Below the pieces are notes generated by a model. That model made no database searches and had not been told where the DNA came from. It saw only the letters and a list, made by a program, of their open reading frames with translations. The position numbers and the translations under genes were made by a program. A stretch of DNA of 26,011 nt from Verrucomicrobiia bacterium (lineage in GTDB: Bacteria; Pseudomonadota; Alphaproteobacteria; Dongiales; Dongiaceae), in contig DATHQQ010000423.1 in NCBI GenBank assembly GCA_035482595.1, positions 1-26,011 on the forward strand, in the 5' to 3' direction. Positions 2 through 5,805 of this stretch are shown one piece after another; positions within the stretch are counted from its first letter, which is position 1, and every line of letters starts with the position of its first letter.

Positions 2-3000
2 CAGGGCGTGCTGCTGCAGCGCAACGTCGGCTACAAGTCGATCGGCCACGGCTTCTATCTCGAGAGCGGCACCGAGACCGACAACAAGTTCTACTCGAAC
101 CTCGGGATCTTCGCCCGCGCCGCCGCCGTCAACCCGCAGAATCCCCGCGCGCTGCCCGGCATCCTCGCCTACTCGGGACAGTTTTTCAAAAGCTACTACG
201 ATCCCATAAAGAAGGTCGACATCACTGCGGCGCTTCCCGACACAGCATTTCCGTGGCGAAGCGACTACATGTTCCCCACCGTGTTCTGGATCACGAACGG
301 CTGGAACGACTTCATCGGCAATATGGCGGCCGGCGCGGGGGCCTGCGGTGCCTCCTATTGGCTCGTCCCGGCCTGGAATACCGACATGCCCGACGTGAGG
401 ACGTCGAGCAACACGCAGTTCAACACTCACATGAAATGGAACGGCTTCGCCTCCCTGCAGAAGGACCTCTCCTTGGCGGGATCGACCCCGCTCAAGTCGT
501 TCTATGGCAATTTCGCGACTTCGACCATGACCTCGTTCCAGACTGTCGGACAGACGTCGCCCTGCCCCGGCGCAACCTGGCCGAAAGATCCGGCAGCAGG
601 CAATCCCGGCATTTTCCCGGGAGTCACAAGCTTCGCGCCGACACCCGAGGCACCCGCCAATACGGAAGCCGACATGTACTATCCGCATGTCAGCGGCGGC
701 GGCCGGATGGCCACCATGTGCCCCCTCAAAGTCGAGGGTGACCCGAGCAAGGGCTACGACTGCACGCTCTTCACCAGCGGACAGAGATCATCCTGCAACA
801 ACGGCGACCCGCTGAAGAATTGCGCCGTCACCGTGCTCGACCACTTCACCTCCTCCTTCCATTGGGCCCAGACGAATTTCGCGGCGATCTGGCTGCGGCC
901 GCAATGGTATCTGGTCGACAACAGCGTGCTGACCGATGTCCAGAACGGCGGCCTCAGCTTCATCACCAGCGGCACCTATGACCGCTCCGCGGTGGTCGAC
1001 GGCGACTGGGCGGTGGTGAGGACCAGCGTGTTCATCGGCAATACGCAGAAGGAGGGGACAAACTCCTACGCCTCGAACCTCACCCCCTTCCAGCACACCT
1101 TCAAAGAGAACGACGGCTTGCCTTGCCAGAATGGCCGCCAGCCATCCCTCATGTGCGCCAACGCGAACGAGGGCGTCAGCCTTCCGATCGACAATTTCGC
1201 GGTCGGCCAGCGTCTCTTCAACATCTACGACGGGCCGGCCTATCAGGAGTCGAATATCTACCTGGATACAAGTACGGCGGAGTGCAAGGAATGCGTGTAT
1301 TCGCGCATGCCGGGCATCCGAAAGCAGACCAACTCGGACAAGTCGGTCTCTTGCTACCTGCCCAACGCGGCCATCGGATGGAAGCAGCCCAACGGCTTCT
1401 TCTATCCGCCCTCCTTCCACTCGACCAACCTGTTCTTCGACAAAGTCGAGATCCGGCACTACGTCATCGATGCCTTGTTCAAGGTGGGCAGCTACAATGA
1501 CGATACGACGCAGATAATGAATGACTATTGCGACTTCAGCGGCATTTTCCCCAACTTCGGAAACTTCAGCGATATCGACCGGCAGACCGAGCTCAACGAC
1601 GATGACGGCTCGCTGACGGGTCTGACCAACGACGTCAAGGTCCAGACCAAGGACCAGCCGCCAACGACCGAGTCCAAACCGACCGGCACGATATCGGTCA
1701 ACCCGGTCGAATTCTTCAGGGCACCGGTCGAAACGGCGGAATGCCTGTCGAACAGAGGCGTGACGCCGGACAAGGCCTGTCCGATTTCCAACCCGAAGCC
1801 GCCGCCGCCTTTCGTTTTGCCGGCTACGCCGACCCCGGCCGGGGCCAACACCAGCCCCTACGACTACGTCACGACGGTCGTCTTTCCGGAGCTCTGCAAA
1901 GGAGCTTTTCCCGCTGCGGGGACCCCTCGGAAATGCGGCGACGACAACGACAACGTCGGTGGAGTCGTCGAAGTCGGTGGAATCAAGTACACACGCTGGA
2001 CGAAGCTCCTCGGCAGGGCCGGCGACTGGTCGGCGGAATGCACGAATCCGGCCTGCTACGGCGTGCCTCTCTATCGCCAGCTCCTGACCGGCACCAGCGC
2101 TTCGCGCGAGCTGAAAGACTGGAACGCGACCTGCGGCACGATTGAGCTGCGCAAGAAAAACCAGAAGGACTGCCGCTGGCCCTTCGTGCGAATGGGCGGC
2201 CAATCGACCTACCAGCGCAGCTCGCTGACGGTCAATCACGGCACCTATTTCATCGACACCAGCGTCAGCAATGATACGCAAACGAAAAAGGAGGCTTTCA
2301 CGACGACCAAGCCCTGCAACGACCCAAGCGTCCCAGCCGCGGCTGACTGCTCTCCGCGCAGCGTGAATGTGTTCCTTAAGGGTCAGACCTACGACGTGTT
2401 CTTCCTCTTTGCGAAACCCGCGACCAAGCAGACCTACCAGATCTACGTCGGGTCCACGGGCTTTAACCTCGCCAACGATGTCGGAGCCATCCGGCCGGTG
2501 CTCGACACCATGCCGATGCCGAGCATCGAGTCCGTTACCCCCTGGCCCACGAATTGGACGAAGAACTACAACGACAAGGTGGCTTGCGCGACCTTCTTGA
2601 AGCCGGATAAGACGATAGATACGAGCTGCGGCATCCTCCAGGTCACGGTCGATTTCTCGGCCCAGACCGATCTCGATCCGAAAAGCCAGTGCCTGCCGGC
2701 CAACTTCTGCGTGAAATCCGGCAGCACTTGCGGCTGCAGCCTCAAGGCCAGCGATCCGCTGGCCTTGGCCGACCCTGTCCGCATGGATGCCTCGGGCAAA
2801 AACGTACTCTTCGGCGGCATACTGGGCGCTTGCCAGAAGACCTGCAGCCAATGGGCGGTCAAGGATCTGGATTTCCCGGGGAAGGGACCGCTGGGCTTCT
2901 CCTTCAAGATGGCCACCGACCCCGACGACCAAGGCTATCTGCACCGGCCGGTACCGCAGCCCTTCCCCACGACAAGGGATCGGGATCCGAAGAAATTTGA

Positions 3001-3124
3001 CCAACCCGATCCCGACTGGCTGACGATGTTCGCCACCACCGCGGTCCAACCCGATAAGTCGACGGGGGAATGCCACTATTCCAGCATTCCGACTAATGGT
3101 CCTGGCGCTTGCCAGATCCCCTGA
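2..3124 (+). CDS. Large secreted-type beta-helix protein, G8-domain/CEMIP-TMEM2-like (5'-truncated by window edge)
   Basis: Frame open from base 2 (QGVLLQRNVGYKSIGHGFYLESGTETDNKFYSNLG) to TGA 3122-3124. Motifs GHGFYLESGTE..N.FYSNLG, VFWITNGWNDFIGNMAAG, PLKSFYGN, FNIYDGP and NDDDGSLTG occur in the order I recall for CEMIP/TMEM2/PKHD1L1-type proteins. 32 Cys by hand count; Pro-rich linker PKPPPPFVLPATPTP. The G8 domain and signal peptide would lie upstream and are not visible. Confidence 0.75.
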   Translation, partial: QGVLLQRNVGYKSIGHGFYLESGTETDNKFYSNLGIFARAAAVNPQNPRALPGILAYSGQFFKSYYDPIKKVDITAALPDTAFPWRSDYMFPTVFWITNGWNDFIGNMAAGAGACGASYWLVPAWNTDMPDVRTSSNTQFNTHMKWNGFASLQKDLSLAGSTPLKSFYGNFATSTMTSFQTVGQTSPCPGATWPKDPAAGNPGIFPGVTSFAPTPEAPANTEADMYYPHVSGGGRMATMCPLKVEGDPSKGYDCTLFTSGQRSSCNNGDPLKNCAVTVLDHFTSSFHWAQTNFAAIWLRPQWYLVDNSVLTDVQNGGLSFITSGTYDRSAVVDGDWAVVRTSVFIGNTQKEGTNSYASNLTPFQHTFKENDGLPCQNGRQPSLMCANANEGVSLPIDNFAVGQRLFNIYDGPAYQESNIYLDTSTAECKECVYSRMPGIRKQTNSDKSVSCYLPNAAIGWKQPNGFFYPPSFHSTNLFFDKVEIRHYVIDALFKVGSYNDDTTQIMNDYCDFSGIFPNFGNFSDIDRQTELNDDDGSLTGLTNDVKVQTKDQPPTTESKPTGTISVNPVEFFRAPVETAECLSNRGVTPDKACPISNPKPPPPFVLPATPTPAGANTSPYDYVTTVVFPELCKGAFPAAGTPRKCGDDNDNVGGVVEVGGIKYTRWTKLLGRAGDWSAECTNPACYGVPLYRQLLTGTSASRELKDWNATCGTIELRKKNQKDCRWPFVRMGGQSTYQRSSLTVNHGTYFIDTSVSNDTQTKKEAFTTTKPCNDPSVPAAADCSPRSVNVFLKGQTYDVFFLFAKPATKQTYQIYVGSTGFNLANDVGAIRPVLDTMPMPSIESVTPWPTNWTKNYNDKVACATFLKPDKTIDTSCGILQVTVDFSAQTDLDPKSQCLPANFCVKSGSTCGCSLKASDPLALADPVRMDASGKNVLFGGILGACQKTCSQWAVKDLDFPGKGPLGFSFKMATDPDDQGYLHRPVPQPFPTTRDRDPKKFDQPDPDWLTMFATTAVQPDKSTGECHYSSIPTNGPGACQIP

Positions 3125-3293
3125 GCGAGTCGTCTTGGGGAGAGGGTAGCGAAGGTGCGGCGGCGGGCTCGGGCCCGCCGCTCGCCGGCTTCGGGGGCCC
3201 TTGTTGGCGGCTGTAGGCAGTCTCCACGCCGCCGATCCGGAGCCTGCGACCGTCGGGGCGCTCGGGGAGATGCTGCACGAGCGCGCCGCGTCA

Positions 3294-3299
3294 TATAAT
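3294..3299 (+). promoter_or_regulatory. Candidate sigma70 -10 element upstream of gspH
   Basis: Perfect TATAAT in otherwise very GC-rich intergenic DNA, 8 nt before the gspH ATG; no convincing -35 and no Shine-Dalgarno sequence. Confidence 0.4.
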
Positions 3300-3307
3300 A
3301 CGAAGCG

Positions 3308-3793
3308 ATGGAACGGACAGTGCGGCGGTGTGGCCGGCGGGGCGGGGGGAGGCGGTTCTCCGAACGGGGGTTCTCCCTCGTCGAGCTTCTCGTCGTCCTC
3401 GCCATCGTGGCCGCGGTGGCGATCATCGCCTTGCCGAATCTCTTTTCGGGCCTGCCGGGCTTGCAGTTGCGGGGGGCGGCGGACGACATGGCCGCGACGC
3501 TGCGGGACCTGCATGAGACCGCCATCCGCGAGAGGATCACGACCGAGCTGACCCTCGACCCCGCGACGCGGATCTATCGAACATCGAATCTGCCGGCCCC
3601 CCATGCGCTGCCCAAGGTGGTCACGGGCGTGGGCTTCACCACGGCCGCCCTTCGCCCCGACGACACGGTGGCGCGGCTTCGCTTCTATCCCGACGGCACT
3701 TCCAGCGGCGGGACCCTCCGCCTGGAGCACGAGGGCCTCTCTGTGTCCGTCGTCGTCGACTGGCTGACGGGACGGGTATCGAGGCATGACTGA
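3308..3793 (+). CDS. gspH: Type II secretion minor pseudopilin GspH (GspH/FimT family)
   Basis: Basic leader, then class III signal G|FSLVELLVVLAIVAAVAII with E at +5; 161 aa; C-terminal LRFYPDGTSSGG..V.V.WLTGRV typical of GspH; first of four overlapping pseudopilin genes. Confidence 0.88.
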   Translation: MERTVRRCGRRGGGRRFSERGFSLVELLVVLAIVAAVAIIALPNLFSGLPGLQLRGAADDMAATLRDLHETAIRERITTELTLDPATRIYRTSNLPAPHALPKVVTGVGFTTAALRPDDTVARLRFYPDGTSSGGTLRLEHEGLSVSVVVDWLTGRVSRHD

Positions 3794-4184
3794 GCGCGCC
3801 CAGAGCGGCTTCACCCTGATCGAGGTTCTGGTCGCCCTCGCCATCGTCGCCATCGCCTTCGTCGTGGCCCTGGGCATATTCACCGGCGGGCTCTCCCGCC
3901 TCGACCACGACCACAATGTGCAATATGCCCTGCTGGTCGCCCAATCGGAGCTGGCGCGGGTGGGTCAGGATATCGCGCTGCAGGACCGCGAGATCGACGG
4001 CCCGGCAGACAGCCAAGGCGAGGACGGCTTCACATGGCATATCGCCATTGCGCCTTATGGCGGCGGGCCGGGGGGCCTGTTCGGTCATCGCGTCGTGGTC
4101 ACGGTCGGCTGGAACGAGGGCTGGCAGAAGCGCGAGGTGAGGCTCGACACCATCCGGCTCGGCCTCCAGGGAACCGGTTCGTGA
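3786..4184 (+). CDS. gspI: Type II secretion minor pseudopilin GspI
   Basis: G|FTLIEVLVALAIVAIAFVV prepilin motif; 132 aa; 8-nt overlap with gspH; second position in the H-I-J-K order. Confidence 0.88.
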   Translation: MTERAQSGFTLIEVLVALAIVAIAFVVALGIFTGGLSRLDHDHNVQYALLVAQSELARVGQDIALQDREIDGPADSQGEDGFTWHIAIAPYGGGPGGLFGHRVVVTVGWNEGWQKREVRLDTIRLGLQGTGS

Positions 4185-4861
4185 GCCGTCGCTTGCGCGC
4201 CGGAGAGGCCGGCTTCACGCTGATCGAGCTGCTCGTCGCCCTGGTCCTCGTGGCCTTCCTGACGACCCTGGTCTTCGGCGGATTGCGCCTGGCGGTACGG
4301 GCCTGGGCCAGATCCCACGAGAGCGTGGCCCAGGCCGCCGATCTCTGGGCGGTGGAGGGCGTGCTGCGCCGGGCGATCGCGCAAGCCATTCCGGCCTTCG
4401 CATCCGCGCGCAGCGACGATCGCAGGATCGTCTTCGACGGCGATGGCGAGAGCCTAGCGCTGCTGGCGCCCCTGCCCCAGGCCATCGCCGAAGGCATCAC
4501 GGCCCGGATGCGCTTCTTCCTGGCGCCGGACGGGTCGTCGAATGCCCTGATCATGGCCTGGCGCGTCGACCTGCCCGCGGCGGAAAGCGGGCGGGCACTG
4601 AGCGAAGACCGGGTCAAGCTGCTCGACCGCGTGAGCGCGATCCACATCGACTATCTGGGACCGGTCCAGCCCGGCGCCCCGCCGGTCTGGCAATCCAGGT
4701 GGTCGGGGCAGACCCGCCTTCCCGACCTCGTCCGCATCCGTCTCGAGCGCGACGGCACATCGCTGCCCAAATGGCCGGAGCTGACGGCAGAGCCGCAGGG
4801 ACAGCTGATCACGGGCTGCCTCTACGATCCCGTCAGCGGCGACTGCCGGAGGATCCCATGA
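4181..4861 (+). CDS. gspJ: Type II secretion minor pseudopilin GspJ
   Basis: GTG start at 4181 overlaps the gspI stop (GTGA), giving MSRRLRAGEAG|FTLIELLVALVLVAFL; C-terminal WQSRW...LPDLVRIRL and a CLYDPVSGDC Cys pair. The ORF-track start at 4034 is too far upstream. Confidence 0.88.
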   Translation: MSRRLRAGEAGFTLIELLVALVLVAFLTTLVFGGLRLAVRAWARSHESVAQAADLWAVEGVLRRAIAQAIPAFASARSDDRRIVFDGDGESLALLAPLPQAIAEGITARMRFFLAPDGSSNALIMAWRVDLPAAESGRALSEDRVKLLDRVSAIHIDYLGPVQPGAPPVWQSRWSGQTRLPDLVRIRLERDGTSLPKWPELTAEPQGQLITGCLYDPVSGDCRRIP

Positions 4862-5748
4862 CCGGCGAGCCTGTCAATGCCGGTTCCCCGCTCGACCCCG
4901 CGAGGACCGGCGAGGAGGACCGGTTTGCCGGACAGCAGGGCTTCGCCCTGATCACCGTGCTCTTCGCCGTGCTGATCCTGGCCACGATCGCGGCCAGCAT
5001 CATGGCCACGGGGCGCACCGAGAGCCGGCTCTCCCGCACACATCTCGACATGGCCGAGCTCGATGCGGTTGCCGATGCCGCGATCAACATCACCATCCTG
5101 CATCTGCTCGATCCCACGGCCGAGGTAAGGCCGCCGGCCGACGGCACGCCCTTCACGGTCGAGTTCGCCGGCCGGCGGGTTGCCATGGCCGTCCTGGACG
5201 AGTCCGGCAAGATCGACCTCAACATGGCCGATGCCGAGCTGCTACGCCGCCTCCTGGTCGCGGCGGGGGTCGGAGCCGATGCCGCACAACCGCTCGTCGA
5301 CAAGATTCTCGATTGGCGCGAGCCCGGCGAGGGCAAGCGGCTCAACGGCGCGAAGGCCAATGAATACAACGCGGCGGGCATCCTCTACGGCCCCCGCGAC
5401 GGGCCCTTCCAATCCATCGAGGAGCTGCAGCTCGTCCTGGGCATCACGCCGGAATTGTACGCGCGCCTGGCGCCCTCGCTGACCATCTATTCCCAGACGC
5501 CCTGGGTCGATCCGGGGTTTGCGCCGAGAGACGTGCTGACCGCGCTCGCGGGAATGGGCGGCGACCCGGTCTCGACGGTCTTGGCGGAACGCGGCACGGG
5601 CAGCAGCACCGGGGGCGTGATGATCGGGCATGCCTTCACGATCAGCGCCGATATCGAAGGCCCCGACCGGCTGCATGTCGCAAGGACGGCGGTGATCCGG
5701 CTGAGCGGCGCGCCGGGCGCGCCGGTGGGGATCTATCGGTGGCGGTGA
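4858..5748 (+). CDS. gspK: Type II secretion minor pseudopilin GspK
   Basis: ATG at 4858 overlaps the gspJ stop (ATGA); G|FALITVLFAVLILATIA lacks E+5 as expected for GspK; motifs DESGKIDLN, ILDWRE, GPFQSIEELQLVLGITPELYARLAPSLTIYS. Confidence 0.92.
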   Translation: MTGEPVNAGSPLDPARTGEEDRFAGQQGFALITVLFAVLILATIAASIMATGRTESRLSRTHLDMAELDAVADAAINITILHLLDPTAEVRPPADGTPFTVEFAGRRVAMAVLDESGKIDLNMADAELLRRLLVAAGVGADAAQPLVDKILDWREPGEGKRLNGAKANEYNAAGILYGPRDGPFQSIEELQLVLGITPELYARLAPSLTIYSQTPWVDPGFAPRDVLTALAGMGGDPVSTVLAERGTGSSTGGVMIGHAFTISADIEGPDRLHVARTAVIRLSGAPGAPVGIYRWR

Positions 5749-5805
5749 GACGCGCTACCGCTCCTTGTTCCGGGGGCGGGGGGAAGAGAGGAAGTGGAGA
5801 AATTC

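Follow-up and report, generated by a model that had tools for sequence, protein, structure and literature searches.

The present analysis concerns a compact operon of four minor pseudopilin genes, gspH-I-J-K, which follows a giant gene for a G8/CEMIP-TMEM2-like beta-helix protein in the window, that is, the whole stretch of DNA analyzed here. The window is one complete contig of 26,011 bp (G000:C423), the longest of the 820 contigs of a soil metagenome-assembled genome that is 90% complete. We find that the four genes, hereafter the cassette, are a second, extra tip set in a genome whose core type II secretion system (T2SS) already includes G, H, I, J, and K. The sequence comparisons indicate that the cassette is a reduced descendant of a T2SS linked to the giant gene and not a duplicate of the resident tip genes. 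The giant protein itself is likely to be a T2SS cargo, and the cassette may provide its cognate tip on the resident machine. In the following, G000 denotes the window's own genome, G003 and G005 are genomes of the same genus, and L022 is a Joint Genome Institute (JGI) metagenome contig whose cassette proteins are 92-97% identical to those of the window.

The cassette and the core T2SS of the same genome

The giant gene and the four genes of the cassette are arranged as follows.

2-3124, + strand: giant G8/CEMIP-TMEM2-like beta-helix gene, the 3' 1040 codons, with the 5' end open at the contig edge; 32 Cys
3308-3793, + strand: gspH, 161 aa; prepilin motif G/FSLVE; N_methyl; GspH PF12019 at 25.6 bits (cut-off 21); XpsH NCBIfam at 82 bits
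3786-4184, + strand: gspI, 132 aa; prepilin motif G/FTLIE; N_methyl; XpsI at 52.7 bits; TIGR01707 at 33.4 bits (cut-off 44.35)
4181-4861, + strand: gspJ, 226 aa, GTG start; motif G/FTLIE; N_methyl; T2SSJ PF11612 at 22.3 bits (cut-off 28); PRK08808 at 61.5 bits
4858-5748, + strand: gspK, 296 aa, ATG start; T2SSK_1st PF21687 at 65.3 bits (cut-off 26.2); NF037980 at 84 bits

The genes follow one another in the order H-I-J-K with coupled start and stop codons, the overlaps being 8 nt for H/I, 4 nt for I/J (GTGA), and 4 nt for J/K (ATGA), while exactly 183 bp lie between the stop codon of the giant gene (3122-3124) and the gspH ATG at 3308. A preliminary description of this DNA had reported four overlapping pseudopilin genes, a Cys-rich gene of more than 1,040 aa located 183 bp upstream, and a racemase and housekeeping genes downstream. 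All of these features and coordinates are confirmed, the downstream genes being identified here as an Asp/Glu racemase, then aroQ for a type II dehydroquinase, accB, and accC.

The assignment of the pseudopilins is based on their N-terminal motifs and on profile matches. The N_methyl/TIGR02532 signature is matched by the cassette H, I, and J proteins, and gspJ has the same length as the J called in L022. The cassette GspK carries the motif G/FALIT without a Glu at position +5, a residue that GspK proteins usually lack, and it also matches XcpX (PDB 5VTM, E=6.8e-5). With the curated Pfam cut-offs, H and K pass, while for I and J the corresponding families are the best matches yet remain below the threshold. 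Since all NCBIfam equivalog scores lie below their cut-offs, the cassette proteins are classified here, on the basis of their scores, as divergent Xps-like members.

The cassette is not located between gspG and gspL, as would be the case in a T2SS operon. No gspG, L, M, D, E, or F is present within the window, which extends to its full length the earlier statement that no gspG precedes gspH and no gspL/M/D/E/F follows gspK. The core T2SS of G000 is instead found on three small contigs, namely C199 (prepilin peptidase and the N-terminus of GspE), C514 (the C-terminus of GspE, F, G, H, and I), and C534 (J, L, M, C, and K). GspO, E, F, G, L, M, and C are accordingly present in G000; the secretin is not assembled there and is present in G003 and G005. 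In G005, which is far better assembled, the core genes O-E-F-G-H-I-J-L-M-C follow one another on one strand, and D-K lie on the opposite strand. A prepilin peptidase and an assembly machine are therefore encoded in the genome besides the cassette pseudopilins. With H, I, J, and K already present in this separate core T2SS, the window set is an additional one, and the idea of a stand-alone HIJK cassette, distinct from a complete T2SS elsewhere in the genome, is borne out. The core gspJ, which is intact in G003 and G007, is spread over two overlapping frames in G005 (L018, G005:C14, 10988-11640), a pattern suggestive of a frameshift or of an assembly error.

It had been proposed that the cassette plugs into either a T2SS or a type IV pilus (T4P) machine. 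For the former, the core T2SS is present. A T4P as the partner machine was rejected, as no second PF00437 ATPase is found in G005 or G000; the sole PF00437 ATPase of G005 is the core GspE, and therefore the cassette, if functional, must work with the core T2SS machine and not with a T4P. The extra set goes together with the giant gene. In a set of 41 relatives, this type of giant gene occurs in three genomes (G000, G003, and G005), and each of them has two GspK genes, one of the cassette and one of the core, whereas the T2SS-positive relatives without the giant gene have one, so that a second GspK occurs in 3/3 versus 0/7 genomes (six of the seven at the Pfam cut-off) in a sample that is small and made up of related, non-independent genomes.

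Linkage of the giant gene to T2SS operons and the origin of the cassette

Three different chromosomal contexts are found for the cassette layout. G005 has a tandem pair of giant genes followed by HIJK and then by the same racemase-aroQ-accBC genes as the window. In G003 (contig C513) the layout is found again in a different context. In L024 (GCA_037024555.1), again another context, the order is GspE (on the minus strand), prepilin peptidase, giant gene, and H-I-J-K. In this region (L024, 7069-9819), the GspE beside the cassette is 77% identical to the core GspE of the Dongiaceae, and the foreign cargo/tip module adjoins core-type machine genes, including the prepilin peptidase. The left side of the giant gene cannot be read in the window, where the contig starts. 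In L022, the cassette-adjacent giant gene is preceded by a second tandem giant copy and then by an ABC transporter, and gsp genes just upstream of the giant gene, the finding which according to the preliminary description would speak for a simple insertion into a T2SS cluster, are absent from this contig of the window's genus.

Farther afield in the Alphaproteobacteria (Stellaceae, Acetobacteraceae, Sneathiellaceae, Marinibaculum, and others), a single giant gene or a tandem of two or three is followed immediately, on the same strand, by a full T2SS operon in the order E-F-H-I-J-L-M-(C)-D-K(-G). When loci with at least 3 kb downstream of the giant gene are counted, T2SS genes adjoin it in 17/25 alphaproteobacterial cases, with the giant gene directly upstream and on the same strand; at one further locus gspE starts right after the giant gene and the contig ends 1 kb after the gene. 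From outside the Alphaproteobacteria the tree contains 48 giant genes (47 loci, from Acidobacteria, Binatia, and delta-, beta-, and gammaproteobacteria), and none of them lies within 10 kb of a T2SS gene. The complete genome G041 (8.3 Mb) has a single GspK, which sits in the giant-linked cluster. The earlier claim of a pairing between a CEMIP-like giant protein and pseudopilins has thus to be modified. The pairing does recur, but it is not the primary arrangement, as the giant gene stands at the head of an entire T2SS operon in most of its alphaproteobacterial carriers.

As to the composition of these operons, those of L025-L027, L036, L047, and L052 have no gspG between gspF and gspH. G043 and G044 have the gene of the major pseudopilin last in the cluster, after gspK; in G041 it is about 4 Mb away.

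The origin of the cassette was addressed by a maximum-likelihood tree of the concatenated H, I, J, and K proteins, which divides the sets into two groups with 100/100 support. One group contains the core sets of the window's genus together with the T2SSs of the same family that lack a giant gene (G010 and G015). The other contains the sets from giant-linked T2SS operons, and the orphan cassettes (the window, L022, G005, G003, and L024) form a clade nested inside it with 100/98 support. Forcing the genus cassette and the core sets together costs 136 log-likelihood units and is rejected by the approximately unbiased (AU) test (p = 1e-53). The identities point in the same direction, the cassette K being 33% identical to the core K and 54% to a giant-linked K. 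The tree of the giant gene agrees with this, as the window copy groups with those of G005, L022, and L024 inside an alphaproteobacterial clade, and T2SS linkage is confined to one clade of that tree.

An in-genome duplication of the core HIJK is rejected by the HIJK tree and the AU test. Because the cassette nests among the giant-linked HIJK sets and the AU test rejects a clade of cassette and core sets, the sequences indicate descent from a giant-linked T2SS, with the cassette as its reduced form. We infer as a possible route that two deletions, one of E-F and one of L-M-C-D, would turn the full layout into giant-H-I-J-K. In L027, the one full cluster examined for overlaps, J/L and D/K overlap by 4 nt, and the cassette J/K junction is an ATGA overlap.

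Both T2SSs with an adjacent dedicated cargo and alternative minor-pilin sets are already known kinds of arrangement. We know, however, of no described case in which an orphan gspHIJK set stays with a cargo gene while the genome has a second, complete T2SS, and none came up in the paper library. The author of the preliminary description knew of no described system that pairs a CEMIP/TMEM2-like protein with pseudopilins, and a search of the library on G8/CEMIP and type II secretion found no paper joining the two.

The giant protein, the proposed mechanism and the alternatives

The window copy of the giant gene is open across all 1040 codons. The Pfam family CEMIP_beta-hel (PF24606) is matched at aa 2-126 of the fragment with 61.7 bits, a partial match cut by the contig end. 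The window copy lacks its N-terminal part, where close full-length relatives carry G8 (PF10162). More than 1000 homologues are found, typically of about 1450-1550 aa with G8 and the CEMIP beta-helix, under database names such as "G8 domain-containing protein" and "cell migration-inducing and hyaluronan-binding protein". The family profile matches the ectodomain of TMEM2 (CEMIP2; PDB 8C6I) with E=1.6e-36. The AlphaFold2 (AF2) model of the fragment is poor (mean predicted local distance difference test score, pLDDT, of 59) and confident only at residues ~620-990, the C-terminal domain; a Foldseek search with it gave 8C6I again as the best, although weak, match. The giant family thus has the G8 and beta-helix core in common with TMEM2 and CEMIP, and the protein is probably a glycan-binding or glycan-cleaving beta-helix enzyme of this kind. 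It differs from them in being bacterial and, as predicted, soluble and Sec-exported, and in having a long Cys-rich C-terminal half for which no Pfam match was found.

Two features expected of a T2SS exoprotein are seen here, namely a Sec signal in full-length relatives together with 32 Cys in the fragment, and recurrent adjacency to T2SS genes at the 17 loci counted above. The signal peptides of the full-length relatives P0009, P0021, and P0054 are of the Sec type and come without a lipobox or a pilin motif.

Our proposal is the following. The giant protein would be exported by Sec, fold in the periplasm into a disulfide-rich form, and then be extruded by a T2SS as a dedicated exoprotein. The ancestral layout would have been giant(x1-3)-gspE-F-H-I-J-L-M-C-D-K, as still found in many Alphaproteobacteria. 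The Dongiaceae lineage of the window has, in addition, a different core T2SS acquired by vertical descent. In this lineage the giant-linked system would have lost its machine genes (E, F, L, M, C, and D), and its four minor pseudopilins would have remained, joined into a compact H-I-J-K operon beside the cargo. Their products, once processed by the resident prepilin peptidase, would form an alternative tip for the pseudopilus of the resident GspG/E/F/L/M/D machine, enabling it to recognize and extrude the giant protein. The tip set would have been retained because the resident tip does not handle the giant cargo. We judge that the giant protein is quite probably a T2SS cargo; a role of the cassette as a cargo-specific tip for the core machine falls slightly short of an even call, and the combined reading, a dedicated cargo with its cognate tip for the resident T2SS, is about evenly balanced.

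Cargo genes adjoining the machine have parallels in PulA and the pul genes of Klebsiella, LapA and the hxc genes of P. aeruginosa, and lsdA next to gsp in Gluconacetobacter. The closest comparison is with the E. coli T2SS-beta cluster, in which the giant glycan-processing cargo YghJ (SslE) heads the operon yghJ(sslE)-pppA-yghG-gspC-M of the machine that secretes it (PMC3707838, PMC4014459). The layout giant-E-F-H-I-J-L-M-C-D-K follows the same logic of a dedicated cargo-machine pairing, with a very large, Sec-exported, and probably glycan-processing protein at the operon head. It differs in that the giant protein is a G8/CEMIP beta-helix without a lipobox and not an M60 metalloprotease, and in that, in the window's genus, only the four minor pseudopilins stay with the cargo, the machine being a separate and phylogenetically distinct T2SS.

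A role of the tip in cargo choice also has precedents. The T2SS tip complex is described as critical for substrate recognition and binding in a passage of PMC6211770 that cites Douzi 2011. TcpF and CofJ, whose genes accompany those of the filament, each bind the tip minor pilin of their own system (TcpB for TcpF, CofB for CofJ) and are specific for the autologous type IVb machine (PMC10120004), and they can serve as a model for a cargo-matched tip. In those systems, however, there is one trimeric minor pilin and a ~320-aa cargo with a short N-terminal export signal, whereas here the tip consists of four proteins, the cargo has ~1500 aa, and the interaction is a prediction. The type IVa fimU-pilVWXY1E sets, of which Myxococcus xanthus has three (PMC7541494), are alternative tip sets co-encoded with a large non-pilin protein and used with one machine; in contrast to them, the giant protein has no PilY1 domain, its gene is not part of the pilin block in most relatives, and the machine here is a T2SS. 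Finally, the E. coli set ppdAB-ygdB-ppdC is a four-gene minor-pilin set apart from the machine genes which, according to a passage of PMC5131608 citing Cisneros et al. 2012, primes a heterologous T2SS pseudopilus, showing that foreign minor pilins can do so. That set is of the T4P lineage and has no linked cargo gene, unlike the cassette.

We have also considered alternative functions for this neighborhood. The lead option of the preliminary description was a tip adhesin analogous to PilY1, in which the giant protein would be a stable non-pilin part of the HIJK tip. A short pseudopilus would then present it at the cell surface without releasing it, and it would bind glycans as an adhesin or act as a surface enzyme. 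The giant gene does adjoin a minor-(pseudo)pilin operon, as PilY1 does, its product is large and Sec-exported without a pilin motif, as PilY1 is, the Myxococcus sets just mentioned show that several minor-pilin/PilY1 combinations can be interchangeable, and the cassette is kept with the giant gene in all three contexts. However, neither a PilY1/PilC domain (Neisseria_PilC beta-propeller) nor a von Willebrand factor A (vWA) domain was found with Pfam and NCBIfam, the sole Pfam match being the CEMIP beta-helix, with G8 in relatives. In most carriers the gene lies before gspE, outside the pseudopilin block, with one to three tandem copies per single tip set, type IV filament genes are missing from the surroundings of the 48 homologues from other phyla, and no ATPase of a type IVa pilus (T4aP) was found in G005. 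Because the giant gene heads whole T2SS operons, occurs in tandem copies, and has unlinked homologues in other phyla, we favor a secreted cargo with a cognate tip over the adhesin, which has lost its leading place and is considered unlikely.

The cassette could instead be a historical remnant, HIJK being left over from the lost second T2SS as a spare priming complex redundant with the core HIJK, or in decay, with the adjacency to the giant gene reflecting only ancestry. The phylogeny indeed derives the cassette from a giant-linked T2SS that has lost its other genes, a T2SS can be primed by heterologous minor pilins without specificity (PMC5131608), and both tandem giant copies of L022 read in several frames. 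Against this, the four genes are intact and their start/stop coupling is preserved, which keeps them translationally coupled, with the J/K junction rebuilt as an ATGA overlap; the intergenic region is also kept in L022 and G005. The pairwise ratios of nonsynonymous to synonymous substitutions (dN/dS) of H, I, J, and K are 0.15-0.5 across species, from 97% down to ~57-61% protein identity, which points to purifying selection on the cassette, although these values were obtained with the Nei-Gojobori (NG86) method for a GC-rich genome and the estimates are rough. The module is moreover conserved in three chromosomal contexts, and the second GspK is confined to genomes with the giant gene, in the small and related sample given above. 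A mere remnant is therefore regarded as rather improbable. An unrelated gene inserted into a T2SS cluster, or a chance neighborhood, is more improbable still, to the point that we give it very little weight. The giant gene does lie inside a T2SS locus in L046, and a transposase is found upstream in L027, but the linkage persists over deep divergence (~43-56% identity) in the same position and on the same strand at no fewer than 18 loci of one clade of the giant-gene tree, and the L022 contig shows no gsp genes upstream in the window's genus.

Several points nevertheless weigh against a secreted cargo with a cognate tip. Cargo genes adjoining T2SS operons are suggestive but not proof. Eight of the informative alphaproteobacterial loci are unlinked, several being paralogues in genomes that also hold a linked copy, and G011 has a giant gene of the non-alphaproteobacterial clade and no detectable GspK or GspG. 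In view of these cases and of the unlinked loci outside the Alphaproteobacteria, the giant family is not always dependent on a neighboring T2SS. The retention of HIJK could mean a priming or regulatory role that is unrelated to cargo choice, and a weak point of the model is that it presumes the cassette pseudopilins to be compatible with the core GspG and platform. Regarding expression, contigs assigned to four soil metatranscriptome libraries agree, at 0-1 mismatch, with parts of the giant gene (490-774, 2638-2822, and 2934-3146), gspH/I (3401-3727 and 3668-3818), and gspK (5378-5528); the depth over the cassette is similar to that over the neighboring aroQ/accB and is low. These matches are consistent with transcription but could also come from DNA carry-over.

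How a T2SS selects its folded substrates is a long-standing problem, for which no common signal is known. The locus can be viewed as a natural deletion experiment, in which only the cargo and the four tip pseudopilins are left of a cargo-linked T2SS in genomes with a different complete T2SS. If the retained tip is needed for the export of the giant protein, cargo recognition would be pinned to GspH-K, and the matched pairs of cassette tip and core tip for one machine are offered for swap comparisons. A broader reading, advanced here with some reservation, is that the minor-pseudopilin tip is a portable specificity determinant of the T2SS, so that a cargo could move between hosts or survive the loss of its machine with only its four cognate tip genes. 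The tip genes would then reprogram an unrelated resident T2SS to export the giant cargo and the locus would be a natural cargo and adaptor cassette, which is an equally tentative proposition. If true, it would give a direct handle on the question of T2SS substrate recognition. The bacterial TMEM2/CEMIP-like family, in turn, gains a probable export route in Alphaproteobacteria, with Marinibaculum pumilum (KCTC 42964) as a cultured carrier, in which the layout is giant-giant-E-F-H-I-J-L-M-...-K-G.

Flanking sequence elements and further copies of the giant gene

Three sequence elements accompany the cassette.

3160-3181, + strand: perfect 9-bp GC hairpin GCGGCGGGC-TCGG-GCCCGCCGC after the giant stop codon, without a T tail
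3294-3299, + strand: TATAAT box, 8 nt before the gspH ATG, kept in L022 and G005
5737-5760, + strand: terminator-like hairpin at the end of gspK, which closes the block

Both arms of the first hairpin are identical in L022 and G005, where the loop is 2 nt longer; it may be a transcript end or a stabilizer. The TATAAT box is possibly the cassette's own promoter, which would give a near-leaderless gspH mRNA. A promoter scan gave no -35 partner for it, and no clear Shine-Dalgarno sequence is seen upstream of the gspH ATG.

The N-terminal ~480 codons of the giant gene, and any tandem copy upstream of it, are not assembled anywhere in G000. A degraded piece that contains stop codons and resembles the giant protein's last ~100 residues is found at the end of another contig of this genome (G000:C781, L021, 8287-8588). 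The ABC-transporter genes on this contig correspond to those left of the tandem giant genes in L022. The piece is probably the remnant of a further giant copy and marks an assembly break. The two tandem copies in L022 and L023 (8731-19047) are split over two or three frames, with the same split in contigs of two samples, and are either real pseudogenes or shared assembly errors.

The giant family is expanded to three or four copies per congener genome. Paralogues without T2SS genes in the available sequence are found at G005:C14:610607-613655, G005:C36, where the contig ends just after the gene, G003:C485, and G003:C394. In an even sample of 400 genomes, PF24606 is found in three besides G000 at E<=0.001, only two of them above the Pfam cut-off, and this rarity of the family made class-wide co-occurrence statistics impracticable. 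The two clear matches (G051 and G338) differ in length from the typical ~1450-aa giant proteins and do not adjoin a T2SS ATPase. Two further contigs look like mis-binned ones, namely an 'uncultured archaeon' contig (L101) with a giant gene nearly identical to that of Nitrobacter vulgaris, and a 'Bifidobacterium' contig (L059) on which an Acetobacteraceae-like giant gene is followed by gspE.

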